A stretch of DNA of 64,000 bases from Candidatus Methanospirareceae archaeon (GCA_049975405.1 JBNGDK010000001.1:38593-102592); one strand, 5' to 3'; positions 4,591 through 61,940 are shown, counted from the first letter of the stretch. Numbers and translations: made by a program. Notes: generated by a model from the sequence alone, not told the origin.

Positions 4591-6144
<1,554 letters not shown>

Positions 6145-6226
6145 GCTGAAAGTATCGTCGGATTGTGGGTGAGCTTCTCAAAACTTTACATTATCGCATG
6201 GTGTATAGCTAGCTGGGAGATGGGCC

Positions 6227-6298
6227 GGGCTCGTAGATCAGTGGAAGATCGTCGCCTTTGCGAGGCGAAGGCCCTGGGTTCAAATCCCAGCGAGTCCA
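6227..6298 (+). tRNA. tRNA-Ala (anticodon TGC) in the 16S-23S spacer
   Basis: Sequence is GGGCTCGTAGATCAGTGGAAGATCGTCGCCTTTGCGAGGCGAAGGCCCTGGGTTCAAATCCCAGCGAGTCCA. The acceptor stem is 7 bp with a G3:U70 wobble, which is the tRNA-Ala identity pair. CCA is not encoded. Confidence 0.9.
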
Positions 6299-6456
6299 TC
6301 CATGCGTGGGACTGATGGTGAGGAAGCTGTATGTATGTAAATGCACCTAGCAACCCGGGTGTTGCTAGGGAAGTACCGATGGCGAGGCGTGGCCTCTGCC
6401 AGATGAGGTGTGTAGACGCACTTGACAACTCTGACATCCAATGGGCTTAGTGAGAC

Positions 6457-9385
<2,929 letters not shown>

Positions 9386-9535
9386 ATCTCGCTGAGCTCA
9401 GATGAAATCAGAGTTGCAAGTGCGTTTGCCCTTTTCCTCACCTTCTTATTTTTGTAAGAGCACGTAACCACGGTAGTGGAACTCAGGCACATAACCTATT
9501 TTTAGATCTCAGTGCTATCAATTAGCAAGAGTTGG

Positions 9536-9607
9536 GCCAGGGTGGCGGAGCGGCTACGCGGCTGACTGCAGATCAGCTACACCCCAGTTCGAATCTGGGC
9601 CCTGGCT
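9536..9607 (+). tRNA. tRNA-Cys (anticodon GCA) immediately downstream of 23S
   Basis: Acceptor stem is GCCAGGG/CCCTGGC. Anticodon stem is GCTGA/TCAGC with loop CTGCAGA. T-arm is CCCAG-TTCGAAT-CTGGG. Confidence 0.85.
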
Positions 9608-14314: not shown

Positions 14315-14872
14315 TTACAGCCCGAGCTGTTCCATCCACCACAATAGCGCGGTCAAAGCGGCAGCCACGGGAATCACGAGGATCCACGGGTTTACTTTGA
14401 AGAGCGTTGGCAAGGTGAGCTCGCCGAAGTCGCCTTTGCTCAGAATCGTCTGCTGTAATTTTGGATAGAGCGCGGCAAACACACCCGCGCCGATCAGCAT
14501 CCCGACGACGCCGCCAAAGAGCGCGTCGAGCGAGCCCTGGCCGACCGCACCCGCGACCGTCCCCGGGCAGTAGCCGAGAATGCCGAAGCCGATGCCGAAG
14601 AGCAGACCTCCGATGACTGAGGCACCAAATGATCCCGGCTTGGGATGGAGCTGGGCCAGGCCCAGGCTGCGGAGCAGGTGCACACCCAGCATCCCGGTGA
14701 TCGAGGCTGCGAGCATGATCTTAACCACGGTGAAATCGGTGAGCAGCAACTGCCCAATGATCACATTGTAGTCCGTCACGCCACCTTTCTGGAGCAGGAA
14801 GCCGAATATGATCCCGATGAGTAGTCCAAGCACCAGTTGCAGGTTCTTCTTCTCGTGCAATCCTGTTAACAT
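14315..14872 (-). CDS. YeeE/YedE-family sulfur-compound transporter, half-protein (second of a split pair)
   Basis: 185 aa. It has a Gly-rich re-entrant motif with a conserved Cys (GFGILGYCPGT) typical of YeeE/YedE (TsuA-like). Confidence 0.7.
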   Translation of the reverse strand: MLTGLHEKKNLQLVLGLLIGIIFGFLLQKGGVTDYNVIIGQLLLTDFTVVKIMLAASITGMLGVHLLRSLGLAQLHPKPGSFGASVIGGLLFGIGFGILGYCPGTVAGAVGQGSLDALFGGVVGMLIGAGVFAALYPKLQQTILSKGDFGELTLPTLFKVNPWILVIPVAAALTALLWWMEQLGL

Positions 14873-14884
14873 GCGTTCGCCCTC

Positions 14885-15403
14885 CTACCCGATGACATGA
14901 AAGATGAGCATCGCCGCGGCGATACCGCCGATGAAGAAGCAGATCGCAGCGAGCCAGCTACTGACCGCTAACTGGAGTGTACCACTGATCCCGTGGCCGC
15001 TGGTGCAGCCACCCGCCCAGCGCGCGCCGAAGCCCATGAAGAAACCACCAATGATCGCCACGAGCCACCGGAGTGCCGGACTGGTACCAAAGGTCGCGGC
15101 CCACGTGCTCGGCACCCAGATCAGCTGAAAGGAGCCCGAGAGCTGCGCGGAGATGAATGCGCCGATCACAACACCCACAACGAGCATCCACTCCCAATCA
15201 ACAACGGGCGCGAACTTCTGGTAATACGGCTTCTCCAGCACCGTCTTGCCGCGGACGAGCCGCTCAAGCATCCCGCTCGTACGCGCATATGCGGTTGAGC
15301 AGCCGATCGGCTTGTCGGAGAGCACGAAGGCGAACCAGCTCAGGACTCCGATGCCGATACCCACCATATAGGGTGACCAGCGTGCCATCGTGAGCCAATC
15401 CAT
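14885..15403 (-). CDS. YeeE/YedE-family sulfur-compound transporter, half-protein (first of a split pair)
   Basis: 172 aa membrane protein with the YeeE/YedE-type motif (GFGARWAGGCTSGHG). It lies 13 nt upstream of its partner. Confidence 0.7.
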   Translation of the reverse strand: MDWLTMARWSPYMVGIGIGVLSWFAFVLSDKPIGCSTAYARTSGMLERLVRGKTVLEKPYYQKFAPVVDWEWMLVVGVVIGAFISAQLSGSFQLIWVPSTWAATFGTSPALRWLVAIIGGFFMGFGARWAGGCTSGHGISGTLQLAVSSWLAAICFFIGGIAAAMLIFHVIG

Positions 15404-15406
15404 CCC

Positions 15407-16849
15407 TCATCCCCCCCTCTTCTCTTGTGGTTCGGGCGTGAAGAATCGCGGCCCGTGTGGCACGGAGCAGACCGGGCATTCGAGGCCGTAGCCTGCCGCG
15501 TTGTAGCCCGTCATGCCGCCTGCGACGTTGAAAACCTCCGTGAATCCTCGTTGCTTCAGAATGCTCACGCCCATACTCGAGCGATGGCCGGTATTGCAGA
15601 TGACGATCGTTGGCGCGGTCGGATCAAGTTCCGTGTACCGCGTTCGGAGATCCGCGAAGGGGATGTTGAGCGCACCGTTAATATGATACGCCGCGTACTC
15701 GCTCGGCGAGCGCACGTCAATGAGTACCATCTTCTGATCGCCGGTGATCGCTTGACGGAACGCTCCTATCGATAGCTGCCGGACGTAACTCGTCGGTAAG
15801 CCAGCCTTCGCCCATTCGAACATCCCGCCGTCAAGATAGCCGATGACCTTATCGAGCCCAACGCGTCTCAGCCAGACCTGAGCCGCTTCGGCCTGCTCGC
15901 TGCTGTCCGTCACCAGAAGAATATCAGCGTCCGGCGGTAGCACCCAGCCCGCGAAGGTGGCGAAATTGCCCGCGAAGTCGATGTGAAACGCTCCGGGCAC
16001 ATGCTGGCACCCGAAGGAGTCGTAACCACGTACACCGACAACGATCGTATCATCCCGTTTCGACCGCTCGTAGAAGGACTTCGGGTCTAAAGCAGCCAGT
16101 GCCGGCAGGGTCCGCACCAGTGTAGGTCCGCGGCGGTTGATCTCGCTGCAGCGACTGAAATGATCGGGGGCCGGAGGCATGTCTGTGGTCAGCGAGCCGA
16201 TGAACTCCTCACGATCCGCGATCTGCAGTTCTGGATTATACTTCCGTTCATACCCGATGGTGCTCGTCCGCTTCGCGCCGAGCATACGACCGCAGAGCGA
16301 GCCAGCGCCGTGCGCAGGATAGACCTCACAGAAGTCCGGCAGGTGGAGCAGTTTCTCGTGCAGGCTCTCATACAACTTCGACGCCAGCTCGCGCGCCCTG
16401 CCCGGGAAGAGATCCGGTCGGCCAACATCGCCGACGAAGAGCGTATCGCCACAGAAGACACTCACCGGCTCCTCCCCCCGCGTGCTGTCCGAGACCACGT
16501 AGCTGATATGCTCGGGTGTGTGTCCCGGCGTTTCCAGAACTCGAAGCCGCATATTTTCGATCCCAAAGTGGTCACCTTCGGCGACACCAACATGGTTGAA
16601 GGCGCAATGTGCGGATTTCGGCGCGTAAATCTGCGCGTTCGTTCGGTCTGCCAGCTCGAGATGTCCGGAGACGAAGTCGGCATGGAGATGTGTCTCCAAA
16701 ACATGGGTGATATCCATGCCCATAGCTTTGGCCGCTTCAAGATAGAGTTCCACATCACGCCGAGGATCGATGATCGCGCAGGTCTCGGTTCCGCCAAGCA
16801 AATAGGAACTGTGCGCCAGCCCCTTAACAAAAAACTGCTGAATAATCAT
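15407..16849 (-). CDS. Metallo-beta-lactamase-fold (ETHE1/GloB-like) domain fused to two rhodanese domains (CstB-like persulfide dioxygenase-sulfurtransferase architecture)
   Basis: N-terminal HxHxDH (HLHADFVSGH). Two C-terminal rhodanese modules follow, the last carrying the active-site loop CNTGHRS. Confidence 0.75.
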   Translation of the reverse strand: MIIQQFFVKGLAHSSYLLGGTETCAIIDPRRDVELYLEAAKAMGMDITHVLETHLHADFVSGHLELADRTNAQIYAPKSAHCAFNHVGVAEGDHFGIENMRLRVLETPGHTPEHISYVVSDSTRGEEPVSVFCGDTLFVGDVGRPDLFPGRARELASKLYESLHEKLLHLPDFCEVYPAHGAGSLCGRMLGAKRTSTIGYERKYNPELQIADREEFIGSLTTDMPPAPDHFSRCSEINRRGPTLVRTLPALAALDPKSFYERSKRDDTIVVGVRGYDSFGCQHVPGAFHIDFAGNFATFAGWVLPPDADILLVTDSSEQAEAAQVWLRRVGLDKVIGYLDGGMFEWAKAGLPTSYVRQLSIGAFRQAITGDQKMVLIDVRSPSEYAAYHINGALNIPFADLRTRYTELDPTAPTIVICNTGHRSSMGVSILKQRGFTEVFNVAGGMTGYNAAGYGLECPVCSVPHGPRFFTPEPQEKRGG

Positions 16850-16959
16850 GTTTATCTCTCTATCCCTCCAGTAGGGTTGCTAATGCGCCCCGTGCGATAA
16901 ATAAGTTATGCAGCGCACGAGCAGACTAGGGATGCTGAGGAACGAACGGTGGTGAATGG

Positions 16960-17313
16960 TTAAGCGTCCTCAGTGGTACGCTCCACGCACGGGTAGGACG
17001 CAGCCAGCTCATGGTCGAGGAAATAGCTGAGCACCGTTCTGATGAGCACGATCCCGCCCAGGAGCGCCATCTCTTTCAGTGTCGGATCGGTGATGGTCCG
17101 AATAATATCCGCGGCAATGAGGAACTCCAGGCCCAGCAGGAGATACGACCCGAGTTGATGACGGAGTGCTTCGCGCTCCCTACAGATCGCTCTGCCCCGC
17201 AACCGGGTAAATTCGAGCTGCAGCACTCTGCTGAAGATGAGCAGGACGCCCCAGACGATGACCCCCATGCCAATGAGTCCGATACCCGTGTAGAGATAAT
17301 AGAAGATGTCCAT
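16960..17313 (-). CDS. Small membrane protein (DUF1622-like)
   Basis: 117 aa with 3 TM segments. The family call is tentative. Confidence 0.35.
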   Translation of the reverse strand: MDIFYYLYTGIGLIGMGVIVWGVLLIFSRVLQLEFTRLRGRAICREREALRHQLGSYLLLGLEFLIAADIIRTITDPTLKEMALLGGIVLIRTVLSYFLDHELAASYPCVERTTEDA

Positions 17314-17364
17314 GGCCGTCGCCCGCGGCTGCTCGCTTCACCGCGTACTCTCGTAACTCGGTTG

Positions 17365-19164
17365 TTAGACGTACAATAAATAAATGAGCCCGACCGCGAC
17401 AACGATGAAGATGATCGTCAGCATCCCGCCGGCCTTCAGGTAGTCCGCGTTGTGATAGCCGCCGGGAGCCATTAGTAACGCATTCACCTGATGCGTGGGC
17501 AGGACGAAGGAGTTGGCGGCACAGACAGCAACGAGCAGCGCGAGCGCGCGTGGACTGATCTGAGCCATCTCGCCAATGATAAGGACGAGCGGTACCAGAA
17601 CGACAGTGGCCGCAGCGTTGGACATGAAGAGGCTGAAAAGCGTCGCGAGCGCGGCGACGGCGACCAGAATGACGAGAGGATGGCCGCCCTGTAACGGCGA
17701 GATCATACGGGTGGCTAGGAAACTTGCCGCGCCCGTCTTCTCCATCGCGATCCCTAGCGGAATCAAGCCGGCGAGCAGGAAGACGGTGCGCCAGTCAACG
17801 GCCTTATACGCTTCGTCGATCGGCACGATGCGCAGGATGATCATCGCCAGCGCACCGGAGAGGAGCCCGAGCGCGAGCGGCACACCCAATAAAATCAGTG
17901 TAATGGCGCCCAAAAAGCACAGGCTCGCCGCGAGCGGTCGCGATGTTCCCGCTGACTCGGTCTCGATCGGCGTGACGAGCACGAAGTTACGGTTATCAGC
18001 CATCGCCTTGATATTCTCCCAGCGGCCATGGACGATCATCGCGTCACCCGGCTCTAAGATCCGATCCGAGAAATCTTCTCGCTCCTCGCGGGCGCCGCTC
18101 AGCAGCATTATAGGCTCCACGCCGTACGTCTTCCGGATCGCCAGTTGCCGCATCGTCTTTCCCGCTACGGGCGCGCGAGGCGGTATGATGAGTTCGGCGA
18201 ATCCCGCAACTTCGCCGCTGCGTAAAGCCTCAAAGTCCGTGCTCGCTGTCGTGACCTTCAACCGGAAATCAGCGATGAAGCGCTCGAGATCGCGCGGGGC
18301 ACCGAGTACCGCGAGCTCCTGACCCACGGCGAAGCGGGTGTAGCGCCAGGGCGCGTAGAGCAGCTCGTCGCCCTCTGCGAGCGCTAAGAGGTTGAGGGTA
18401 TAACGCGCCCAGATCTGAGCTTCCTCGCGCGTCTTCCCGATGAGCGGGCTCTCAGGCGGAATGACGACGTGAAAAATGGTCGAGGGTAGATCCCAGGTCT
18501 CGATCAATTCCTGCTGTGGGCTGATAAACTCTCCTCCTTTGCCCGCGGGAAATACCCGTCTACCAACCGTCAGGAAATAGATGATGCCCATAGTTAAGAG
18601 CGCGATACCGATGGGTGTGACACCAAAGAGGCCAAAGGGCTCCTGACCCCCTTGCCGTAAGAGATCGTTGAGGAGGATCAGCGGGGCGGAGCCGACCAGG
18701 GTGAGCGTGCCGCCCAATATGCCAGCGAAGCCCATAGGCATCAAGAGCCGTGAGACGGGTATGCGCATCTTCTTGGCGATTCGCATCACCGCCGGCAGGA
18801 AAAGGGCGACCGCGCCGATATTCTGCATGAACGAGGAGATCAGTCCAACCGCCACGGCCACGAGCCCAATCAGCCGTCTCTCGCTCGTGCCTGCCACGCT
18901 GATTATCGCGCGACTAAACCTGTTCATCACGCCCGAACGGCCCACACCATAGCTCAGGATCATCACCGCGATGATCGCCACCACGGCGTTACTTGCAAGG
19001 CCCGAGAACGTTTCCGATGGTGTAAGCAGCCCCAGCCAGGGCAGCGTGACCATGATCAAGATGGCGATGACATCGACGCGGAAGGCCTCAGTCACGAAGA
19101 GGATAATGGTGGCCACGAGCACCGCCAGCACGAGTATGATTTCAGGTGTCATAAACCTCTTCAC
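17365..19164 (-). CDS. DASS/SLC13 (ArsB/NhaD superfamily) anion transporter with two central TrkA-C (RCK_C) domains
   Basis: 599 aa. Hydrophobic N- and C-terminal halves flank a roughly 180-aa soluble insert with a duplicated RCK_C-like pattern. Confidence 0.7.
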   Translation of the reverse strand: MKRFMTPEIILVLAVLVATIILFVTEAFRVDVIAILIMVTLPWLGLLTPSETFSGLASNAVVAIIAVMILSYGVGRSGVMNRFSRAIISVAGTSERRLIGLVAVAVGLISSFMQNIGAVALFLPAVMRIAKKMRIPVSRLLMPMGFAGILGGTLTLVGSAPLILLNDLLRQGGQEPFGLFGVTPIGIALLTMGIIYFLTVGRRVFPAGKGGEFISPQQELIETWDLPSTIFHVVIPPESPLIGKTREEAQIWARYTLNLLALAEGDELLYAPWRYTRFAVGQELAVLGAPRDLERFIADFRLKVTTASTDFEALRSGEVAGFAELIIPPRAPVAGKTMRQLAIRKTYGVEPIMLLSGAREEREDFSDRILEPGDAMIVHGRWENIKAMADNRNFVLVTPIETESAGTSRPLAASLCFLGAITLILLGVPLALGLLSGALAMIILRIVPIDEAYKAVDWRTVFLLAGLIPLGIAMEKTGAASFLATRMISPLQGGHPLVILVAVAALATLFSLFMSNAAATVVLVPLVLIIGEMAQISPRALALLVAVCAANSFVLPTHQVNALLMAPGGYHNADYLKAGGMLTIIFIVVAVGLIYLLYV

Positions 19165-19382
19165 AACCTCTTAGCACGGCTTATGGTTCGTTTGTTCGCT
19201 CGCTTTTCCTTCTATCAGTCCGACGATCATGGGCTCCAGTTGAAAGTGTCTCGCATTTTAGCTTGAGAAGAGCTAAAGCTCCGTGTTTATGGTCCTGAGC
19301 CGTTATTCGTGCCATTCGATTGGTGTCGCGGCATAAATAACTTGCGAGAGTTAGTTTCTGCGGTCTGATATTCCCTGATTCT

Positions 19383-20504: not shown

Positions 20505-22379
20505 CTACAGCCGCTTATACCATTTTACGAGCCCAAATATGAGCACGGTGATGATGAGCGTAACGGCAATGCCGACCCCTTTCGTCTTCACTGAGCTTAA
20601 CGGAGAGTCCCCGGTGGGCGCCGCTCTAGCACGTGAACCTGCGACCGAGCCGTATTTCACCGAGGCGTTCCAGTCGTGAAGGAAGACCGCCTCGTAAAAA
20701 GCTGCTACCGCTTCGCTATCCACAATGACGCCCACTTCACGGTTCTGCACCGAATTGCCGTTCCAATTGAGCGAGGTGATAACGGCGGTCTGACCATCGA
20801 CGATCAACGCCTTCGTATGTACCTTGACCACGCCGAGTTCATCTAAATTCGCTAAGGTCGCCGCTAGATTCAGATCTTCGTCATGCGCTACCTGTTCCAG
20901 CCATGCGACGACTTCGTCGTTATCATTTACCGTTTCGAGGTTGTAATCGTTGGCATCCAGCAGCACTTTCACCTCGCAGCCGCGCCGGGCGGCCGCGATC
21001 AATGCGGTAATGAAGATGTTCTCATCTTTACCCCAGAAACGCGGGGCTGAAAACTGCTGCACGTAAATGCGCTCCTCCGCGTTCCGGATGGTGCCCAGGA
21101 TCGTCTCATTATCGAGTGCGGAATCCGGGGCGACGACCGGGATCACGATGAACTCACCCGCTACGGTTACTGGCTCGAATGCGGCAGCGAAGTTGCCCTG
21201 CGGTATCCATGCCACCGTGCTGCTCGTCCCGGCGTCGAGTATGTCTGCGGTCACTGCAGAACCACGGTAGAAGTCCTCAAAGAAGAGCGCTGTGAAGTAG
21301 CTCGCGACATCTTTCGCTCGTATAACGATCCCCCAGCCGCGATTGCCGTACGAGTTGTCCACGGGCACGCCGGTCAGTTTCCAGTTCTCGGTCATCACGA
21401 TGAGCGTTCGATTATCGACCACGGCATACTTAGCATGATTGATGTACGGGTCCTCAGCGAGTCGTACCTCCAAACCGCGTTCCAGGGCCTGATTCATACT
21501 GTACCGCTCGTCAGCCGTGACGCCACCGACCGGATTGCTTTCGAGCAGGAGCTTTACTGCCACACCGCGATCTACCGCCGCCCCGAGTGCGTCCATGAGG
21601 TGTCGATGCTCGAACTGATAGAGGTTGAGGTAGATCGAGGAGGTTGCCGCGTCGAGTTCGCGCTGCAAAGCGGAAAAACTGCAATCGGGCGAGACGAACG
21701 CGGTCACTTCGCCGGAGCAGGAGAAAACCGTGGGCTCGTGATAGGACGCACCCAGTGGCAGCGCGAGCCAGTCGTTACTCCGGTCTGAGTCCCGGGCTCC
21801 TTTTCGTGTCAAGATCATACCTTCACGCGGCTTTTCTAACGGAGCGCCGTGCCATCCCTCACCCGTGTAACTGCACTCGCCGTAGATGACCGCGTCCACT
21901 TCCTCTCCCGCATCGTTCACAAGGATCACTTCGTCGCCCGTATTGCGCAGGGCGAAAGTCATACCACTGGTTTGTAATTGCGGTATCGCAGGGTCTGAAT
22001 CGGGACCGTATTCGAAATCCGGCTTTTCGCTCACTTTTACAACCGCGCCGCGGTGCGCCATGAACGCCGATGCGTTGCGCGTAACGTACAGGGTTTGATA
22101 TGGCGCAAGCTCGAAGGCAGGGTAGATAAGCGTGCCTTCGGTATCCGTGAGGCTCCAGCCATCGAGATTTACCATATTCGCGCCGAAATTGGTTACGGCA
22201 ACGTACTCGTCCAGCTCGTTACGCATCGCGGTATCTGGATAGAGCTCGGTGATGAGCACCCGCGCCTCGTTTTCGCGGTATTGGGCTGCGATGATCGGCG
22301 TGAGGATCAGGAGAACGAAGAGCACGAGTATGACTGCACCTGCGAAGCGTTCTATGCTCAAAACTCCTTTCTCACTCAT
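20505..22379 (-). CDS. Membrane-anchored lamin-tail-domain protein with two phospholipase-D (HKD) domains
   Basis: N-terminal TM helix. Lamin-tail-like segment (ITELYPDT...YVAVTNFGANMVNLDGWSL). Two HxK(x4)D motifs (HAKYAVVDN, HTKALIVDG). Confidence 0.7.
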   Translation of the reverse strand: MSEKGVLSIERFAGAVILVLFVLLILTPIIAAQYRENEARVLITELYPDTAMRNELDEYVAVTNFGANMVNLDGWSLTDTEGTLIYPAFELAPYQTLYVTRNASAFMAHRGAVVKVSEKPDFEYGPDSDPAIPQLQTSGMTFALRNTGDEVILVNDAGEEVDAVIYGECSYTGEGWHGAPLEKPREGMILTRKGARDSDRSNDWLALPLGASYHEPTVFSCSGEVTAFVSPDCSFSALQRELDAATSSIYLNLYQFEHRHLMDALGAAVDRGVAVKLLLESNPVGGVTADERYSMNQALERGLEVRLAEDPYINHAKYAVVDNRTLIVMTENWKLTGVPVDNSYGNRGWGIVIRAKDVASYFTALFFEDFYRGSAVTADILDAGTSSTVAWIPQGNFAAAFEPVTVAGEFIVIPVVAPDSALDNETILGTIRNAEERIYVQQFSAPRFWGKDENIFITALIAAARRGCEVKVLLDANDYNLETVNDNDEVVAWLEQVAHDEDLNLAATLANLDELGVVKVHTKALIVDGQTAVITSLNWNGNSVQNREVGVIVDSEAVAAFYEAVFLHDWNASVKYGSVAGSRARAAPTGDSPLSSVKTKGVGIAVTLIITVLIFGLVKWYKRL

Positions 22380-23284
22380 GTTCCCTGCAAAAGCCGCTCA
22401 AAGAGGTCCGCAACGATCTCCTCGGTGACATCGATACCACAGGCCTGGTTAATGCCTCTGCCCGACGGCGTCCCGTTGACTTCGAGCAGCAACAAACCAT
22501 CTTCGCCTTCGATCAGGTCAACGCCGGCGAAGTCCGCGCCGACCGCTTTAGTCGCACGTACCGCGAGGTCGCGTAGCTCTCCTGTGAGTTCACACCTTAC
22601 AGGTCTCCCGCCCTGACTCAAGTTACTGACGACCGAGCCGTCGAGCGAGACACGATACATGGCGCCGAGTGCCTCCTCGCCAACGACAAAGACGCGAATA
22701 TCACGGCCCGGGTTCGGCACGAACTCTTGAATGTAGAGCACACCGCGCTCTTTAAGCAATCCGGCGAGGGTTGATTCCACATTCGGCTCTTCTTCTGATA
22801 GCATGACAATGCCTTTGCCCTGGCTGCCGAAGATGGGCTTCACTATCGCGCGCCCCCATGCAGCGATGGCATTGAGCGCGACATCCAGCTCAGCCGTTAC
22901 CAGTGTGCGAGAGATGGGGAGCTGCGCACGCTGAAACAGAACAAAGGAGTAGAATTTGTTCGCCGCGTTCTGGATCGCGGCAGAGGTGTTCATCACCGGC
23001 ATGATTGCTTCTAACTGCCGGATAAGATCGAACTTGAAGGAGATCTGTTCGAGCGCGAAGCTGATGCCCACGTCCCTTACAATGAGTGCATCGAGGTCTA
23101 CGGTTTGCGAGCGCGCATCGGAGATCGAGCAGGTGGCCGGTGAGAGCGAAGCACTGAGTTGAGCGAGATTCAGAGGCACCGCTTGTGCACCAGTCCTCTC
23201 AATATGCTTGACAAAGGCCGCGGCAGTCCAGTCCTCAGGGTCGGTAAGGGCGACACCAATTTGGAGCTCTTTTTCAGGTACCAT
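22376..23284 (-). CDS. RimK-family ATP-grasp alpha-L-glutamate ligase (MptN/CofF-like)
   Basis: 302 aa with ATP-grasp motifs (IVKPIFGSQGKGI, LLLEVNGTP). The start overlaps the upstream gene by 4 nt. Confidence 0.7.
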   Translation of the reverse strand: MVPEKELQIGVALTDPEDWTAAAFVKHIERTGAQAVPLNLAQLSASLSPATCSISDARSQTVDLDALIVRDVGISFALEQISFKFDLIRQLEAIMPVMNTSAAIQNAANKFYSFVLFQRAQLPISRTLVTAELDVALNAIAAWGRAIVKPIFGSQGKGIVMLSEEEPNVESTLAGLLKERGVLYIQEFVPNPGRDIRVFVVGEEALGAMYRVSLDGSVVSNLSQGGRPVRCELTGELRDLAVRATKAVGADFAGVDLIEGEDGLLLLEVNGTPSGRGINQACGIDVTEEIVADLFERLLQGT

Positions 23285-23319
23285 TGTATCTTGAACTGTG
23301 ATCGTTACGGCGCAGTTAC

Positions 23320-24078
23320 TTACGGATAGGCGGCAATCAAGGGCACCGTTCCCATCATCTTCCTCTTTGCCTTCCTGTTCTCGGCCAGGTGCGCCACATG
23401 ATCACCGCAGATGAGCAGCACGCCTTCGCGCGCGCTCACAGCCGCAGCTATTTTAGCCATACGCTCATTCATTAAATGCGCCGCGATATGTAAATCCTTG
23501 TTCCGGTGCGCGAACCGGTCGATGGCGCGGAGGTGCGCGAAGACGAACCGCACCTCCTCCTTCTGCACCACGGAAACCGTGTACGTGGTTATTAATGCGT
23601 CATACTCCTCTATATCTTCGCGATCGTCAACTGGACACACGTAGCCGATCCGGCCGACGAGCGGTCTTGTACCTGCGGTCTCGAGAATGGCCGCGGTTGG
23701 CTTGCCCACGTCGTTGAGCAGCTCCAGAAGCGAGTTCACCGGTGAAGTACCGACCTCTTTGCTCGTGAGTATTCCGTGTTCTTCCGGCAGAAGCCCGGTA
23801 AGGATCGAGGCAATCGCCGGCGTGGTCGTATCCGTCACCGTTTCACAATCGAACACTAACCCCGCGGAAGCGAGCGTGTGCAGCACGTCGAGATCATCGG
23901 CGAGCGTAGCATAAAGGGAAGAATCAAGGCTGTCGATCACCACCAGTGTCACGACTGAAGACTCGCGGGCCTGCAAGAACGCGAGCAGCTGCTCCACAGG
24001 GCGTTTTGAAGAGTCCAGAGGCACCCTAAAGAAAGCAGCAAGGGTCGGTGCGATATCTAAGAGCGAAATAAGTTGCAT
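23320..24078 (-). CDS. Alkaline-phosphatase-superfamily protein (type I phosphodiesterase / nucleotide pyrophosphatase-like)
   Basis: VVIDSLD and TTPAIASILTGLLPEEHGI resemble the NPP-family LxSxDG and TxPxxxSxxTGxxPxxHGI motifs. GDH lies near the C-terminus. Short (252 aa), so the call is tentative. Confidence 0.4.
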   Translation of the reverse strand: MQLISLLDIAPTLAAFFRVPLDSSKRPVEQLLAFLQARESSVVTLVVIDSLDSSLYATLADDLDVLHTLASAGLVFDCETVTDTTTPAIASILTGLLPEEHGILTSKEVGTSPVNSLLELLNDVGKPTAAILETAGTRPLVGRIGYVCPVDDREDIEEYDALITTYTVSVVQKEEVRFVFAHLRAIDRFAHRNKDLHIAAHLMNERMAKIAAAVSAREGVLLICGDHVAHLAENRKAKRKMMGTVPLIAAYP

Positions 24079-24151
24079 ATGAAAGACTCAGTTTTTTCGT
24101 TGATATAAGTTTGGACAATTCACGAAGCTGGCGTTGCCCCTTTTTCGGATC

Positions 24152-24235
24152 AGGAGGGTTGGAAAGTGGGAGGTTCGGCCTAGTGTTTTTATTTGGCCCC
24201 CGTTTTGTGGTTAGGAGGGTTGGTAAGGGGTGGGG
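24152..24235 (+). repeat. Two G-rich direct repeats in the intergenic region
   Basis: AGGAGGGTTGGAAAGTGGGAGG (24152-24173) and AGGAGGGTTGGTAAGGGGTGGGG (24213-24235). Confidence 0.6.
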
Positions 24236-24243
24236 ATTGGCCC

Positions 24244-25101
24244 TTACTGATAGAGCTCCTTCCGTCGCGCCTCCAGCATATCGACCTCGCGTCCGAGATA
24301 TTCAGCAGCCGTTGTTACGGTTACCTTTTCAGCAGCAGCGCTCGCGTACGCATCAGCTATTCGTTCCTTATATTTCAGGTCGCGCATGAAATGGTGCTCT
24401 ATCAGAATTTCCTGGACAGAGGTCTCCGTTATAATTCGGGTGATATACTCGATCGAGCGTTCCAGGCTCTGCTGCGAATAGCGGAATCCGAGCAGATAGG
24501 TCATCGGACCATCCAGTATGAGCATATCAGGCTCTTTCTGCAGGATGAATTTTGCCTGCTCCGCTAACGCGGGCCCTTCAACATCGCTCGTAAAGACCAG
24601 CTTCTCACCACCGCACGCAATGCTCACCTCGACCACGTAGCCGAGCTTGGCGTTCGTGCCATGAAAGACCGCCGGTGAGAATCTGATGGTGGTCGAGCCG
24701 TGCTTGAATTCGTTCCCGTCCGCGAACTCGATGGTTTGGGGCAGGTCAGCGAGCTGCTCCAAAAAGAACGCCGCGCGTCCGCGTTGACTCCGGTTGATCC
24801 GCTCCTCAGGATGCTTGAGATACACGACCTTACCATCATAGAGCTCAGGCGCGTAGGGGTCATGATGATCGTAATGATAATGGGTGACGATGAGAACGTC
24901 GCTCAGAGCGGCATGCGCCGTGATCTCGTCCCAGCACGCGGTCATCCGCTGCTCCTCCACGGGATGCGGCGGTAACCCATACCGGATGGGGGCCAAGGAA
25001 ACGCCAGGATCAATAAGCACCGCGAGGTCGTCCGTCTCAACGAAGGTCGCCATGGAGCGAACCCCTAAACTCTCAAATGCGAGCGGCTTGACCGTCAGCA
25101 T
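24244..25101 (-). CDS. MBL-fold metallo-hydrolase
   Basis: HxHxDH motif (THYHYDHHD). Start trimmed to the internal Met (MLTVKPLAFE...) to remove the divergent overlap with the next gene. Confidence 0.6.
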   Translation of the reverse strand: MLTVKPLAFESLGVRSMATFVETDDLAVLIDPGVSLAPIRYGLPPHPVEEQRMTACWDEITAHAALSDVLIVTHYHYDHHDPYAPELYDGKVVYLKHPEERINRSQRGRAAFFLEQLADLPQTIEFADGNEFKHGSTTIRFSPAVFHGTNAKLGYVVEVSIACGGEKLVFTSDVEGPALAEQAKFILQKEPDMLILDGPMTYLLGFRYSQQSLERSIEYITRIITETSVQEILIEHHFMRDLKYKERIADAYASAAAEKVTVTTAAEYLGREVDMLEARRKELYQ

Positions 25102-25178
25102 GGTACTGCTCACTATACTGAAAGACGATCCTGTCCTGCTTAAATTTATAAGCCTACCGCGCTTCTTCCTATAGGAAC

Positions 25179-27521
25179 ATGAAGCCAAATCCTTCGCGCT
25201 CTTGCTGGGTTTTGGTCTTTGCAGTTCTCTGCTCTATCTGTTTCAGCGGCTGCCTCGAGCCCACTCCAACAGAACCGGAAGAGACAATGGCAACCTTACA
25301 AACCGCTGCGATTGATCTGTCGAGCGCGGAAGCGACGGCGAAGACGCGATTCATCGAATATTATTCGTTACCTGCGCTGAATATCAGTTTACAGACCGCG
25401 CAGTACAGTCTACCGCTCGATACCGATAAGGTCAGTAACTACCGCGAGTTCTCGCGTACAATCTCACTGGATGAAGCTGCTATACAACTCTTGGAGACAA
25501 ACGGGTTCGTCGTCATCGATTATCCGTTCAACGCACATGAGGAGGATATAACAACACCATATACCACCCTAAAGGATCGCGAGATACCGATCTTCATCAC
25601 CGCCGATTCGCTCCTGCATCTCTATCATATCCAGTTCGATGAAACGCTGCGGCAGATCGAGGAGCGCGAATTTTACGACCTCATCTGGGAGATCAGCCGT
25701 GAGCTGTTGAACGAGTCTGTAGCTGATTATAACCGGTACGACGGCGAGCTGAAGGAAGCTGCACGCAGGAATACGGCCTACTTCGCGGTCGGTTTGAGCC
25801 TGTTGCAGCCACGGGAGGATCAGCTCTGTACCGACGGCTGGGAATGTCGGGATCCCGGGCTGGCGAGCGCGTATTTCACCTCAGAGGAGTTGGTGATCTA
25901 TAGTTTCGAGGTACCGGATTTTGTGAAGGCTGAGGTTGAGGCGGAATTAGCGCTGATCGAGACCCACGCTGGCTTAGAGACGTCACCGATCTTCAGGTAT
26001 GCAGAGGATTACTCGCAATACGTGCCGCGGGGGCATTACACGCGGAGCGAGAAGCTGAAGAATTATTTCAAAGCGTTCATGTGGTACGGCCGTCTCAGTT
26101 TCTTGCTGAAAGGCCGTCCGGAAGGATTGGTCGCGGAAGAAGACGCCAGACTACAGACGATGGGCGCGGCGCTCATTACAACGCACTTAGAGCAGCAGCC
26201 GGCGTTACAGGCAAAGTGGGATCGGATTTATGCCGTCACTGCGTTCTACGTTGGACTCTCCGACGACCTGGGCCCCTATGAGTACCGGGAGGCCTTGAAT
26301 TCCGTGTTCACCGGAACGTTCGAGCCGACCATGCTCACCGAAGAGCGCGTGAAGGACTTGAAGACGAAGCTCGCTGAGTATCGTTCGCCTGAAATCTACG
26401 GTGGCACGGGCGATTGCGTGATTCCACCGCCGTTCACACCGGAACAGGCCGATGAGTGCCTGGAGGCCACCAAAGGATTCCGGTTGATGGGCCAGCGGTT
26501 CATTCCTGATTCCTACATGTTCTCGAATCTGGTTGGTACGTATACAGATATCTATCAGGGCGATCGAGAGCCGAAACCGTTTACGTACGTAGTTTCAGGC
26601 GCGGGCCGCCCGATACGGGGATTCCCGCGCGGTCTGGACGTCATAGCGCTCTTGGGCGCTGCTCGCGCACGGGCGCTCCTGGACGAGCTGGATGATTCCA
26701 ATTATAAAGGGTACGTTGCGGCGTATAGCGACTTAGCGGCGGAATTCCAGAACTTCAGCGACGCTGACTGGAACCAGAATTTATACTGGAGCTGGCTCTT
26801 CACGCTCCAGCCACTCTTAAAAACGTACGGCACCGGCTATCCGACTTTTATGCAGTCCACAGCATGGCAGGACAAAGCGCTCACCACCGCGCTCGCCTCA
26901 TGGACCGAGCTGCGGCACGATACCATACTCTACGCGAAACAGAGCTATACCATGGTGGAATCCGCGATGCCGATGCCAACGCCGGAGAAAGAGGTGGTCG
27001 GCTATATCGAGCCGGCGCCTGAGTTTTACAACCGGTTGCTGGCACTGACCCGGATGACCACGGACGGCCTGGAGAGCATGGATGTGCTGGACGAACCGGC
27101 GAAGTACCGGTTAGAGCGGTTAGAGACGATTTTGGAGCGTCTGGTGGTCTTATCTGGGAAGGAGCTGGCGAACGAGGAATTGACCGAGGCTGATTACCAG
27201 TTCATCGAGAACTTCGGCGACGAGTTGAACGACGTGATCGCGGAGGTCGATGAGAAGGCGAAGAAGACCACGATCGTCGCGGACGTCCACACGGAAGGGA
27301 ACACCGGGCAGGTGCTCGAGGAAGGGGTCGGGTACGTCGATCTGATAGTCGTGGCCTACAAGGTTCCCGACGGGCGAATACTAATCGGTGCGGGCCCTGT
27401 GCTGAGCTATTACGAGTTCAAGCAGCCCATGCAGAACCGGCTAGCAGACGAGCAGTGGCGTGAGTTGCTCCAGGATGAGCCACCCGCGCGGCCGGAATGG
27501 TACGTTAATTTCGCCCGGTAA
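25179..27521 (+). CDS. Large secreted lipoprotein-like protein of unknown function
   Basis: 780 aa. N-terminal signal with lipobox-like Cys (LCSICFSGCLEP). No catalytic motif recognised. Confidence 0.5.
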   Translation: MKPNPSRSCWVLVFAVLCSICFSGCLEPTPTEPEETMATLQTAAIDLSSAEATAKTRFIEYYSLPALNISLQTAQYSLPLDTDKVSNYREFSRTISLDEAAIQLLETNGFVVIDYPFNAHEEDITTPYTTLKDREIPIFITADSLLHLYHIQFDETLRQIEEREFYDLIWEISRELLNESVADYNRYDGELKEAARRNTAYFAVGLSLLQPREDQLCTDGWECRDPGLASAYFTSEELVIYSFEVPDFVKAEVEAELALIETHAGLETSPIFRYAEDYSQYVPRGHYTRSEKLKNYFKAFMWYGRLSFLLKGRPEGLVAEEDARLQTMGAALITTHLEQQPALQAKWDRIYAVTAFYVGLSDDLGPYEYREALNSVFTGTFEPTMLTEERVKDLKTKLAEYRSPEIYGGTGDCVIPPPFTPEQADECLEATKGFRLMGQRFIPDSYMFSNLVGTYTDIYQGDREPKPFTYVVSGAGRPIRGFPRGLDVIALLGAARARALLDELDDSNYKGYVAAYSDLAAEFQNFSDADWNQNLYWSWLFTLQPLLKTYGTGYPTFMQSTAWQDKALTTALASWTELRHDTILYAKQSYTMVESAMPMPTPEKEVVGYIEPAPEFYNRLLALTRMTTDGLESMDVLDEPAKYRLERLETILERLVVLSGKELANEELTEADYQFIENFGDELNDVIAEVDEKAKKTTIVADVHTEGNTGQVLEEGVGYVDLIVVAYKVPDGRILIGAGPVLSYYEFKQPMQNRLADEQWRELLQDEPPARPEWYVNFAR

Positions 27522-28732: not shown

Positions 28733-28798
28733 ATGCATAAAACAATAGATGGGAGCAAATTATCTGAGCCCAAACTGCTTAAAGAAGGAAGTGAGGCC

Positions 28799-29112
28799 AT
28801 GAGGATACAAGGCATTTTTGAAGAATTCAAGAAGGAACTTGAGAAATTATATGGTGCAAGATTGAAGCAAGTTATTCTTTACGGCTAATGGGCACGAGGA
28901 GATGCTGCTGCGGATTCTGATATTGACTTACTCGTTGTTCTTGAGGGTGAAATCAGTCCTGGTGCAGAGATTGATCGGATGATCGATATAATTACAGGAA
29001 TCAACCTAAAATATGATTTATTACTTTTCATTTATCCAATATCTGAGCGGGATTATTCCGCTATACCGAGCCTATTGCTCCTTAACGTACGCAGGGAAGG
29101 GATACCAGCGTG
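28799..29112 (+). pseudogene. Minimal nucleotidyltransferase (MNT, Pol-beta superfamily) antitoxin gene interrupted by an in-frame TAA
   Basis: MRIQGIFEEF...ILYG*WARGDAADSDIDLLVVLEG. The stop replaces the conserved Ser of the GS...D.D motif at 28886-28888. The region is low in GC. Confidence 0.6.
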
Positions 29113-29193
29113 AAGGAAATAAATTCGCTGCTCGAAAGGACAAATAGATATCTCAGAAGCGCGGAATTACTTCTCGTATCTCTAAGTGGCTAG
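29109..29193 (+). pseudogene. Truncated HEPN-domain toxin gene remnant (start overlaps MNT stop, GTGA)
   Basis: VKEINSLLERTNRYLRSAELLLVS* is a HEPN N-terminal helix pattern. It ends after 28 codons where the vapC 3' end begins. Confidence 0.35.
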
Positions 29194-29565
29194 AAACAGC
29201 TTCAAGCCGAAATCGCAGAACCGTTCAAAATGCACGTTGTTCAGCGTGGCGAGCCGCGCATCTCGGTTGATGCACATGGCTGCAATCATCGCGTCAAACC
29301 TTCCAGCGGGCTTGCCCCGCTTCTCCACTTCCACTTCAAGCTTTGCTGAGCGTAGCGCATCGCGCCGTGTAAAGTCCACGATCGTAAACTCCAGCAGCTC
29401 ATCCAATGTCTTTTTCCTCACCTTATAAAAACCGTACAAAATTTCATGAAGGTTAATCGAGGTGGTAGCGATCTCGTATCCCTCTATTTTTGCCAGTATC
29501 TCCGCACCTACTGCGGATTCCTTATCGAAGATCTCGATGAGGACATCACTATCCAGGACGATCAT
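29182..29565 (-). CDS. vapC: PIN-domain ribonuclease toxin VapC
   Basis: Start at the internal Met (MIVLDSDVLIEIF...), giving the PIN N-terminal acidic motif. About 127 aa. Confidence 0.8.
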   Translation of the reverse strand: MIVLDSDVLIEIFDKESAVGAEILAKIEGYEIATTSINLHEILYGFYKVRKKTLDELLEFTIVDFTRRDALRSAKLEVEVEKRGKPAGRFDAMIAAMCINRDARLATLNNVHFERFCDFGLKLFLAT

Positions 29566-29806
29566 CAAAAGCTCGTTTTTCCCCCCGTTTCGCGTATATC
29601 TCCTTGAGAATAATATCCTTTTCTGCACTGCGGAGTTCGAGCGTTTTCCGTAAATTCTTCAGCAATTCGATATTTTTTCTTTCCTCTTTCCCTTCACCCA
29701 GCAGGTGCTCCAGGAAATCATTGAGTGACGCATCCCCTTTCAGGGCACGCAATTTCTCATACAAATCGTCCCGTATTGTTATCGTCTTCGACATGGTTCC
29801 TGTCAC
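29549..29806 (-). CDS. vapB: VapB-like antitoxin (RHH/CopG-type)
   Basis: 85 aa (MSKTITIRDDLYEKLRALKG...). It overlaps the vapC start by 17 nt. Confidence 0.6.
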   Translation of the reverse strand: MTGTMSKTITIRDDLYEKLRALKGDASLNDFLEHLLGEGKEERKNIELLKNLRKTLELRSAEKDIILKEIYAKRGEKRAFDDRPG

Positions 29807-52819: not shown

Positions 52820-52918
52820 CGCCGAGGAAGGGATTTGAACCCTTGAGTTCCTTTCGGAACACAGGCTATCTAGTCCGGAGAGCTCCAGGCCTGCGCCTTA
52901 CCGCTCAGCCACCTCGGC
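52820..52918 (-). tRNA. tRNA-Ser (anticodon GGA) with a ~15-nt intron 3' of position 37
   Basis: Reverse complement reads GCCGAGGTGGCTGAGCGGTAAGGCGCAGGCCTGGAG[CTCTCCGGACTAGAT]AGCCTGTGTTCCGAAAGGAACTCAAGGGTTCAAATCCCTTCCTCGGCG. 3-bp D stem, long variable arm, anticodon stem CAGGC/GCCTG. Confidence 0.75.
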
Positions 52919-61273: not shown

Positions 61274-61274
61274 A

Positions 61275-61940
61275 ATGAACGAGATAACTGAGGTATTGGA
61301 GACGCGAACGAACTTTTACGGGTTTTTGAGTCGCATGTATATCGAAGAGCCGACTCGCGAGTTCGCTGACGATGTGGTGAACGCGCGTTTTGATTTCGGG
61401 CAGTTAACTGCGTTGGACCTCAACGCAGAGCTTACGGAAGGATTTCAGCTATTAAAAGCCTTTGTGGAGCGAAATAAAGGGCGGGACACTGCGGCACTCC
61501 ACGAAGATCTCCGGGATGAATACACGCTCCTCTTTATCGGCCCGCATCGGCTGCCCATCGAGCCCTACGAGGCCTGGTGGTTGAGCGGGAAACGGCTGGG
61601 AATGCCCCTGGTGAGCGTGAAGGAGGCGTACCAAAAAGCGGGTGTCACGAAATCAAAGGAGTATCCCGAGCCTGAGGATTACATCGGCTTTGAGCTCAAA
61701 TATATGCAGTACCTCTCTGCGGAGACCTTGAAGGCAGAGACACGTGAGGACATGAAAGAGTACCTGAAGCTGCAGCGGGGGTTTATGGATGAGCACCTTC
61801 TAAAGTGGGTACCCGCATTCTGCGACGCAGTGTATGAGTACAAACTCTCAGCATTCTTTAAGGGCATCGCAAAGCTCACCAAGGGCTTTATTATGCTCGA
61901 TGACGCGGTACTCGATGACCTGTTAGATAGCGTACGCTGA
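61275..61940 (+). CDS. TorD/DmsD-family redox-enzyme maturation chaperone-like protein
   Basis: NFYGFLSRMYIEEP and EDYIGFELKYMQYL match TorD-family motifs. Start set at MNEITEV right after the upstream stop. Confidence 0.6.
   Translation: MNEITEVLETRTNFYGFLSRMYIEEPTREFADDVVNARFDFGQLTALDLNAELTEGFQLLKAFVERNKGRDTAALHEDLRDEYTLLFIGPHRLPIEPYEAWWLSGKRLGMPLVSVKEAYQKAGVTKSKEYPEPEDYIGFELKYMQYLSAETLKAETREDMKEYLKLQRGFMDEHLLKWVPAFCDAVYEYKLSAFFKGIAKLTKGFIMLDDAVLDDLLDSVR

Follow-up and report, generated by a model that had tools for sequence, protein, structure and literature searches.

The present work concerns a gene cassette that encodes a fusion of a metallo-beta-lactamase (MBL) domain with two rhodanese domains, together with a transporter of the YeeE/YedE kind that is split into two half-size proteins. 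The cassette lies in a 64,000-nucleotide stretch of DNA from Candidatus Methanospirareceae archaeon (GCA_049975405.1 JBNGDK010000001.1:38593-102592), the whole of which is referred to below as the window. The host is an ANME-1 (anaerobic methanotrophic) archaeon, the Methanospirareceae being a family of the order Methanophagales, and the window itself is archaeal: it carries a 16S-tRNA-23S operon at 4636-9387, and among its genes are those for an MCM helicase 100% identical to one that NCBI lists under this same taxon, the anaerobic ribonucleotide reductase NrdD, a geranylgeranyl reductase and a CofH-like radical SAM protein. An earlier reading of the window, made from the sequence alone (the sequence-only reading), had assumed a strictly anaerobic archaeal host, and with archaeal 16S and 23S rRNA genes, MCM and NrdD all present in the window this assumption is therefore a reasonable one.

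Five co-oriented open reading frames (ORFs) on the minus strand span positions 14315-19164 (Table 1). Three of these, the fusion gene and the two half-transporter genes, had been delineated by the sequence-only reading, and their coordinates and lengths are exact. The order of the genes must be reversed, since the earlier description had the transporters followed by the fusion, while in fact the fusion gene is transcribed first and the half-transporter genes come after it. The three-gene cluster at 14315-16849 stands as far as it goes, but the conserved unit is larger and reaches upstream to 19164, where it takes in the genes for a small DUF1622 membrane protein and a permease. Only 3 nt separate the stop codon of the fusion gene from the start of the gene for the 172-aa half-transporter, and a 12-nt spacer separates the 172-aa and 185-aa genes, with the sequence GGAGGG before the ATG of the latter; spacers as short as these suggest that the fusion and transporter genes are co-translated. 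Upstream of the fusion gene lies the octamer TTATTTAT, a candidate archaeal TATA box, which is followed by a GGAGGG Shine-Dalgarno-like sequence, and a second, identical TTATTTAT is found at 19333-19340 on the same strand, upstream of the permease gene. To judge from their sequence, the two boxes may be archaeal TATA elements, and if they are, two transcription units are implied. The cassette is flanked by genes for DinB and thymidylate kinase/NrdD, both in the window and in its closest relatives.

Table 1. Coordinates of the cassette genes, of the segments of the fusion protein and of a candidate promoter element
Feature	Positions	Strand	Basis
CitMHS/SLC13-like permease with two TrkA_C domains, 599 aa	17365-19164	-	Pfam
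DUF1622 small membrane protein, 117 aa	16960-17313	-	Pfam DUF1622, E 8.9e-25
Candidate archaeal TATA box TTATTTAT	16897-16904	-	read from sequence; ~50 nt 5' of the fusion-gene ATG
Lactamase_B + rhodanese + rhodanese fusion, 480 aa	15407-16849	-	Pfam
Persulfide dioxygenase (MBL) domain, residues ~1-240	16130-16849	-	residue alignment to CstB
Middle pseudo-rhodanese, residues ~245-355, without catalytic Cys	15785-16117	-	matches CstB RHD domain
Catalytic rhodanese, residues ~357-456, with C418-N-T-G-H-R423 and R380	15482-15781	-	aligns to CstB C408, R413 and R370
C-terminal tail, residues 457-480, motif E-C458-P-V-C461-x-x-P-H465	15410-15481	-	homologue alignments
PmpA/YedE1-like half transporter, 172 aa	14885-15403	-	Pfam Sulf_transp, E 1.5e-27
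PmpB/YedE2-like (DUF6691-type) half transporter, 185 aa	14315-14872	-	Pfam Sulf_transp, E 1.1e-15

Domain structure and active sites of the fusion protein

On the evidence of its sequence and of its predicted fold, the product of the fusion gene is a CstB-type (type III) fusion of a persulfide dioxygenase (PDO), a pseudo-rhodanese and a rhodanese. Pfam matches the protein to Lactamase_B (E 1.9e-16) and, in two stretches, to Rhodanese (E 3.7e-31). Its best sequence matches in the PDB, both of which are collinear over the full length, are 3tp9, an uncharacterised Alicyclobacillus 'beta-lactamase and rhodanese domain protein' (E 6.8e-90), and S. aureus CstB, 3r2u (E 5.4e-69); these are followed by BpPRF, the Myxococcus PDO, the Beggiatoa PDO and ETHE1, and glyoxalase II enzymes appear only behind them. 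CstB and 3tp9 share with the window protein the order PDO, pseudo-rhodanese, rhodanese, as well as 43-48% identity in the MBL domain, an HxHxDF motif, the Fe triad, a swinging Cys-Gly loop, and a rhodanese Cys with its flanking Arg. The suggestion of the sequence-only reading that the gene encodes a CstB-like fusion with the same domain order is thus borne out by domains, sequence, predicted fold and catalytic residues alike.

The functional residues of CstB comprise an Fe(II) triad (H56/H119/D145), H58, R154, the loop residues C201-G202, and the rhodanese C408, which lies behind R370 and R413 (2026 preprint, PMC12934615). All 11 of the CstB functional residues that were compared (H56, H58, H119, D145, R154, C201-G202, G198/G206 and the rhodanese set) have matching counterparts in the window protein. 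Its PDO domain contains the motif H54-L-H56-A-D58-F59, together with H110, D135, R144, H180 and a flexible loop bearing C186-G187. Alignment to CstB predicts a facial triad of Fe ligands composed of H54, H110 and D135, accompanied by H56, as the equivalents of H56, H119 and D145 accompanied by H58; D58 and F59 correspond to CstB D60 and F61, R144 to R154, C186-G187 to C201-G202, and the loop glycines G183 and G191 to G198 and G206. The loop as a whole, H180-G-A-G-S-L-C186-G187, is the counterpart of the self-S-sulfonated Cys-Gly loop that is specific to CstB. The CNTGHRS motif that had been taken for an active site is present, with its Cys at residue 418, and this Cys and its two Arg match the CstB rhodanese set (Table 1). 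Both of the rhodanese domains that had been described exist, but only the C-terminal one is catalytic: when the two domains are aligned with each other, a Thr of the middle domain stands opposite C418, making the middle domain a pseudo-rhodanese as in CstB.

These residues are strongly conserved. Across 142 close homologues, whose named members include anaerobic archaea and bacteria, H54, H56, H110, D135, C186, G187, R380, C418 and R423 are invariant, and R144, G183 and G191 are invariant in a 47-sequence alignment (A2). In the wider family, sampled as 136 diverse representatives, H54, D58, H110, H180 and C418 are found in 136/136 sequences, C186 in 135 and R380 in 134, followed by R423 (128/136), G187 (127/136), H56 (122/136) and D135 (119/136). 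Catalytic residues that are invariant or nearly so in the homologues indicate purifying selection on the predicted oxidase site, and their strict conservation across many anaerobes argues that the site is in use.

The clade to which the window protein belongs, which is known from sequence alone, also has features that CstB and 3tp9 lack. Positions 24, 82, 174 and 234 are near-invariant Cys in the anaerobe clade, whereas CstB and 3tp9 have Ala at the first, Asp or Pro at the second, Ile or Val at the third and Met at the fourth. Elsewhere among the 136 representatives position 24 is mostly A, position 82 is A, V, L or F, position 174 is V, T or L, and position 234 is M or, less often, D or N. 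All four Cys occur together only in the clade of the window protein and in one representative cluster (P0122) out of the 136, with partial patterns among neighbours. Because the usual replacements are hydrophobic, these Cys may simply be buried residues. The C-terminal E-C-P-x-C-x-x-P-H tail is absent from CstB, from 3tp9 and from the Methanoregulaceae and Atribacterota versions of the protein; C458 and C461 are kept in 133 of the 142 close homologues, and C458, C461, P464 and H465 are invariant in alignment A2. From its sequence, the CxxC of the tail could be a redox-active pair or a metal site. Single differences from CstB are His13 in the window protein in place of Gln13 and Gly20 in place of Cys20.

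The identification of the MBL domain as a PDO must be weighed against the proposal that it hydrolyses a thiol ester, as the sequence-only reading also suggested and as glyoxalase II (GloB) does, or is some other hydrolase, a proposal to which we give almost no credence. It draws on the GloB equivalog TIGR03413, which is the best NCBIfam match by score, and on database labels, many homologues being called 'hydroxyacylglutathione hydrolase' by JGI (Joint Genome Institute). The score, however, is 107.6 bits, which is far under the cut-off of 200.8 bits. The signature motif of the domain is HLHADF, that of CstB and 3tp9 is HIHADF, and that of ETHE1 and GloB is HxHxDH; since the sixth residue is Phe59 rather than His, as it is in 142/142 close homologues, the second metal site of GloB is incomplete. 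The ligand pattern, the comparison of which with Fe and Zn enzymes had been proposed as a check, is accordingly the mononuclear 2-His-1-Asp one, with the second-site His of glyoxalase II absent, and the 'HEY' region of GloB is replaced by the CstB-type HGAGSxCG loop.

Phylogeny and structure agree with this. A neighbour-joining (NJ) tree of MBL domains, built from BLOSUM62 distances with 200 bootstraps and with reference sequences taken from the PDB searches, resolves three groups, each at 100% bootstrap: one consists of GloB, a second of ETHE1, BpPRF, the Myxococcus PDO and the Beggiatoa PDO, and the third of the window protein, its homologues from anaerobes, CstB and 3tp9, the nodes inside the anaerobe clade being weakly supported in the NJ trees. 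An AlphaFold2 model computed from the 47-sequence alignment has a mean pLDDT of 83 and a predicted template modelling (TM) score, pTM, of 0.77. Its low-confidence parts are only the Cys186 loop (182-193), where the low pLDDT is consistent with the flexible, dynamic loop of CstB, and the C-terminal tail (457-480), which is modelled as disordered. In Foldseek comparisons of the model with the PDB, in which TM scores for single-domain targets are normalised to target length, 3tp9 scores 0.86-0.88, CstB (3r2u), likewise normalised to the target, 0.84-0.87 and the single-domain PDOs 0.82-0.87. All GloB enzymes are placed below these: canonical GloB from human, Arabidopsis, E. coli, Salmonella, Pseudomonas and Leishmania scores 0.56-0.66 (0.62-0.66 for the human, plant and E. 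coli enzymes), and S. aureus GloB and YcbL score 0.75-0.78. A grouping of the domain with GloB was therefore rejected on the separate clades, the sub-cut-off score and the lower TM scores, and the phylogenetic comparison with ETHE1, CstB and GloB that had been called for puts the domain with CstB.

The split transporter, its neighbours and the distribution of the cassette

The two half-size proteins encoded after the fusion gene jointly cover nearly the whole fold of the thiosulfate transporter TsuA (YeeE), with the order of the halves swapped. The 172-aa protein matches positions 171-309 of the Sulf_transp (PF04143) profile at 97.4 bits and the 185-aa protein matches positions 13-150 at 58.4 bits, against a cut-off of 27, the latter also matching DUF6691 weakly; a profile of homologues of the former covers residues 194-336 of E. 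coli TsuA, the C-terminal half, and one of homologues of the latter covers residues 6-167, the N-terminal half plus the central helix. Each half contains a Gly-rich motif with a Cys, as had been noted from the sequence: GARWAGGC133TSGHG in the first, where the Cys is invariant in 20/20 sequences and aligns to TsuA C302, and LGYC102PGT in the second, where it is invariant in 19/19 and aligns to TsuA C94. The 172-aa protein has an extra Cys35 motif, with C35 in 16/21 homologues. The NCBIfam TsuA model gives 62 and 57 bits, against a cut-off of 400.

That the two genes might be one gene interrupted by an annotation frameshift was considered and rejected. The order swapped relative to TsuA makes a frameshift of a single gene impossible, and the spacer is conserved and has a ribosome-binding-like sequence of its own. 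The pair thus consists of two genuine genes, as had been proposed, a C-half followed by an N-half, each with a start and a Shine-Dalgarno-like sequence of its own, in an arrangement found in more than 20 genomes.

In sequence terms the pair is the longer form of a split transporter that is already known. The C-half-like PmpA and N-half-like PmpB of Serratia, and likewise YedE1 and YedE2 of Cupriavidus, have been proposed to form a heterodimer, import zero-valent sulfur and typically have PDO genes beside them (PMC11582611, PMC10812762); split pairs next to a PDO gene have been described in aerobic bacteria (PMC10812762, PMC11582611). Like the window pair, PmpA/PmpB and the YedE1/YedE2 of Cupriavidus pinatubonensis are products of adjacent genes with the C-half-like protein first and the DUF6691-type N-half-like protein second, carry the counterpart of TsuA C302 in the first protein and that of C94 in the second, and have a PDO gene nearby. 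They differ in length, having ~130-145 aa with four helices each rather than 172 and 185 aa; the window pair includes the TsuA central helix, which the short PmpAB pairs lack, and its first protein has the extra Cys35 motif. The partner enzymes also differ, being of the CstB type in the window and of the Blh/type II kind in those systems. In comparison with E. coli TsuA/TsuB (YeeE/YeeD), the Sulf_transp fold and two Cys at positions that are reportedly indispensable in S. thermophila are kept, but TsuA is one polypeptide of ~350 aa rather than two in swapped order, its first Cys (C25) has no counterpart in the N-half-like protein, and no TusA-like TsuB partner accompanies the window pair.

The closest annotated analogue of the long pair was found when plasmids were searched with the 172-aa protein, which gave only two matches, one of them the Cupriavidus campinensis plasmid NZ_CP043439.1 with the same cassette. 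This plasmid encodes two pairs, one short (144+144 aa) and one long (175+199 aa), the latter 37-39% identical to the window proteins and located directly downstream of a CstB-like gene (locus L031, 3537-6097) whose product is 38-39% identical to the window protein. That gene is annotated as three fragments, namely two hypothetical proteins and a rhodanese-like protein, and is therefore apparently frameshifted or mis-called. Genes for a regulator of the ArsR family and for a multicopper oxidase lie in the same stretch, as does the other, short pair of the YeeE/DUF6691 kind.

A scan of one genome per GTDB species yielded 22 loci. The CstB-like protein is 84-95% identical to that of the window in three archaeal metagenome-assembled genomes (MAGs) of the same clade, including ANME-1-THS; 58-67% identical in Deltaproteobacteria, Syntrophus, Desulfobacterales, Thermodesulfobacteriota, KSB1, Atribacterota, Hydrogenedentota, Acidobacteria and PVC (Planctomycetes-Verrucomicrobia-Chlamydiae) bacteria; and 56-58% identical in nine Methanoregulaceae/Methanolinea MAGs. 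In a collection of 5.8 billion proteins, bacterial homologues from Planctomycetes, Poribacteria and Deltaproteobacteria reach ~70% identity. The family is large, with at least 8,000 clusters at 90% identity, and when clustered at 50% identity it comprises 1,543 clusters at E < 1e-30, of which the anaerobe clade makes up a single one. The order fusion, C-half, N-half is kept in ~24 of 30 loci.

In an NJ tree of full-length sequences the ANME-1 clade (100%) lies inside a group, also at 100%, with Planctomycetes, Poribacteria, Acidobacteria, Deltaproteobacteria and KSB1, and the Methanoregulaceae clade (100%) branches elsewhere. Because the ANME-1 sequences are nested among bacterial ones and the Methanoregulaceae clade is separate, the cassette has probably been transferred between domains at least twice. 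In ANME-1-THS (L003, RXIE01000033.1, 179-10191) the three-gene cassette occurs without the permease and DUF1622 genes and has as neighbours BrxL, a PIN gene and a large N6-methyltransferase/Eco57I-type gene; this defence-island setting is suggestive of mobility. Taken by themselves, this nesting and this defence or mobile-element island would fit a recent passenger, left behind by horizontal transfer and without a function in its archaeal host. Such a passenger is nevertheless very improbable here, since none of the five ORFs is disrupted, at least three related archaeal genomes have them at 90-96% identity and in synteny with housekeeping neighbours, the catalytic residues are invariant, and the GC content of the cassette, 0.59, is near the ~0.55 of the remaining window.

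The 599-aa permease matches CitMHS (E 2.2e-84), Na_sulph_symp (E 2.6e-17) and, twice, TrkA_C in Pfam, with remote PDB matches to VcINDY and human SLC13A1. The ANME-1 clade, Methanoregulaceae, KSB1, Atribacterota and one metagenomic locus (L005) have an SLC13-like permease directly upstream of the fusion, and DUF1622, for which a literature search turned up no functional work, separates the two genes in the ANME-1 clade and in L005. On the 3' side of the cassette a SulP/STAS permease is found in seven loci, six of them bacterial (L004, L007, L014, L029 and L030, with L008 a duplicate of L007) and the seventh L005. In a Pfam census of 83 flanking ORFs in the 22 loci, CitMHS (8) and Sulfate_transp/STAS (6) are the only recurrent transporter families, and no ArsR/BigR, CstR, SQR, TusA or DsrE family recurs. 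The sequence-only reading had placed the cluster in sulfur trafficking and had asked for TusA/DsrE partners; none of these families is recurrent in the 22 neighbourhoods, and there is no TusA-like ORF in the window, where a scan of all ORFs for the CPxP motif hit off-frame ORFs only.

The same reading had reported a second, extracytoplasmic rhodanese-redoxin at 61974-62951 (minus strand), and this protein is real: it has a signal or transmembrane anchor, a rhodanese Cys94, an AhpC/redoxin C179xxC182 and a C-terminal tail resembling the PGF-CTERM sorting signal. Its gene adjoins those for a TorD-like chaperone (61233-61940) and a ferredoxin/MvhD(FlpD)-domain protein (59204-61273), and lies 45 kb from the cassette with no obvious link to it.

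Several other features of the window were recorded. The rRNA region (4636-9607) has one tRNA inside the spacer and another 3' of the 23S gene, and a search of the window for 5S rRNA gave no match at the gathering threshold. A tRNA match at 52820-52918 has a length, 99 nt, that is suggestive of an intron. The segments 20505-25188 and 25179-27521 are syntenic with the closest relatives, and the genes in 20505-27521 encode a protein with LTD and PLD domains, a RimK-type ATP-grasp protein, a phosphodiesterase/sulfatase-like protein, a Lactamase_B_2 protein and a 780-aa DUF3160 protein. A patch of low GC content (0.47 vs ~0.55) at 28733-29806 is likely a small mobile insertion; it contains a VapBC-type toxin-antitoxin pair of minus-strand genes, for a PIN-domain protein (29182-29628) and a VAPB_antitox protein (29549-29806), and a short nucleotidyltransferase-like ORF fragment at 28733-28888.

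Oxygen, sulfane sulfur and the role of the cassette

A PDO in a strict anaerobe had been called unexpected by the sequence-only reading. The paradox is real, but it is not peculiar to this archaeon, since Syntrophus, Desulfobacterales, Atribacterota, KSB1 and Methanoregulaceae share the clade. The type III PDOs catalogued in a 2017 survey come from aerobic bacteria and, on the archaeal side, from Crenarchaeota alone (PMC5702731), and literature searches brought up no paper on this cassette in any methanogen, ANME or other obligate anaerobe. PDO-sulfurtransferase fusions of other kinds are known from the bigR operon of Xylella and Agrobacterium, where the sulfurtransferase-dioxygenase Blh is encoded with a sulfite exporter, and from Desulfobulbales and cable bacteria as Rho-PDO proteins, which in Desulfobulbales present the same paradox as here (PMC5823870 and a 2026 cable-bacteria paper, PMC13047784). 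Those proteins combine an N-terminal sulfurtransferase with a PDO of type I/II or of the HxQADY type; in the window protein the PDO comes first, its motif is HLHADF, and no regulator is linked to it.

By analogy with CstB we consider it, with modest confidence, probable that the cassette was acquired horizontally for dealing with sulfane sulfur, that is, persulfide and polysulfide, and that it detoxifies these during O2 intrusion by means of the CstB-type persulfide dioxygenase-rhodanese. An Fe(II)- and O2-dependent conversion of two persulfides to thiosulfate has been demonstrated only for S. aureus CstB, in which S-sulfonation of C201 is strictly dependent on O2 and Fe (PMC12934615), and for a few type III PDOs in recombinant E. 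coli cells that co-express SQR (PMC5702731). In the corresponding mechanism low-molecular-weight persulfides would load sulfane sulfur onto Cys186 of the loop and onto Cys418 of the rhodanese; the mononuclear Fe(II) site (H54, H110, D135) would use O2 to convert the Cys186-persulfide into an S-sulfonate; and the flexible loop would carry the S-sulfonate to the Cys418-persulfide, flanked by Arg380 and Arg423, from which thiosulfate would leave without free sulfite. The split YeeE pair would transport zero-valent sulfur or thiosulfate across the membrane, inwards or outwards, and the SLC13-like permease, or SulP in the bacterial versions, would transport the oxyanion product. Because sulfane sulfur arises largely where O2 meets sulfide, during an intrusion of O2 the enzyme would take away both the oxidant and the toxic sulfur species; without O2 it would be only a persulfide carrier or sulfurtransferase. 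Concentrations of polysulfide from 0.25 mM upwards are inhibitory to ANME and to a related methanogen (PMC6286981), and this toxicity supplies a selective reason for the cassette.

Several considerations weigh against a detoxifying, O2-dependent role. ANME-1, Methanoregulaceae, Syntrophus and Atribacterota count as strict anaerobes, to which O2 may not be available in situ; the host thus differs from that of CstB, as does the genetic context, given that no CstR, CstA, SQR or TauE is found in the neighbourhood in the window or recurs in the 22 loci. With no SQR, no sensor of the CstR/BigR type, no CstA and no TauE, this context is unlike that of every characterised PDO operon. The four extra Cys and the CPxC...PH tail, absent as they are from characterised CstB, could mean a different chemistry. 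The literature searched contains no expression or biochemical work on any member of the clade.

An alternative that we regard as serious, if rather unlikely, is that the cassette acquires or handles sulfur independently of O2. The YeeE pair would then import thiosulfate or polysulfide, Cys418 would take the place of TsuB/YeeD and cleave thiosulfate to persulfide and sulfite, and the PDO domain, with its Fe site, Cys186 loop, extra Cys and CxxC tail, would act as a relay or non-oxidatively, feeding either assimilation or the reductive disposal of sulfane sulfur. Transporters of the TsuA type require a cytoplasmic partner that bears a Cys (PMC11582611), for which only the fusion protein among the proteins encoded here qualifies, and the co-translation suggested by the 3-nt and 12-nt spacing would suit such a partnership. 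C201 and C408 of CstB are still persulfidated under anoxia (PMC12934615), ANME have been proposed to assimilate sulfur species more oxidised than sulfide (PMC6286981), and the CPxC tail and the four extra Cys go beyond the CstB mechanism. BpPRF, itself a PDO-rhodanese fusion, has reportedly been assigned to sulfur assimilation. Against this stands above all the conservation of the oxidase site: the close clade shows no variation in the Fe triad, H56 or the Cys-Gly loop, which would be unexpected for a mere relay, and even in the wider family H54 and H110 (136/136) and C186 (135/136) are retained, although D135 (119), H56 (122) and G187 (127) are not strict. No PDO active site has been demonstrated to turn over independently of O2, and the published remark that a PDO 'does not need oxygen' derives solely from correlated expression (PMC13047784). 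Thiosulfate assimilation, moreover, is not obviously needed in these habitats, because sulfide is abundant in them.

A further possibility concerns the enzyme itself: the anaerobe-specific clade, with its extra Cys, its tail and its coupling to a complete two-piece YeeE channel and to oxyanion permeases, might be independent of O2, the Fe site, Cys relay and CxxC tail converting or reducing sulfane sulfur anaerobically, possibly by interconversion of persulfide and sulfite with thiosulfate or as a persulfide reductase driven by thiol-disulfide exchange. We hold such a conversion to be decidedly unlikely. If it were true, ANME-1, Methanoregulaceae and syntrophic bacteria would possess a dedicated route for zero-valent sulfur, which would bear on the old debate over zero-valent sulfur in anaerobic methane oxidation.

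Neither the enzyme family nor the split transporter is new in itself, and PDOs paired with such a transporter are known as well. What is new is the host range of the type III PDO, which extends to ANME-1 and Methanoregulaceae; the linkage to an SLC13-like permease and DUF1622; and the long, complete form of the split transporter, together with the clade-specific Cys features. The practical value of the assignment is modest and lies mainly in correcting the generic labels 'MBL fold metallo-hydrolase' and 'hydroxyacylglutathione hydrolase' carried by homologues for which source names are shown. Studies of transporters can make use of the long YeeE pair, in which nature has divided the whole TsuA fold into two pieces. 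If the enzyme is not dependent on O2, it would represent new chemistry in a well-studied family; if it is, the cassette adds a sulfur-specific item to the defences of methane-cycling archaea against oxygen intrusion, and would explain how these archaea could cope with polysulfide, which is toxic to them.

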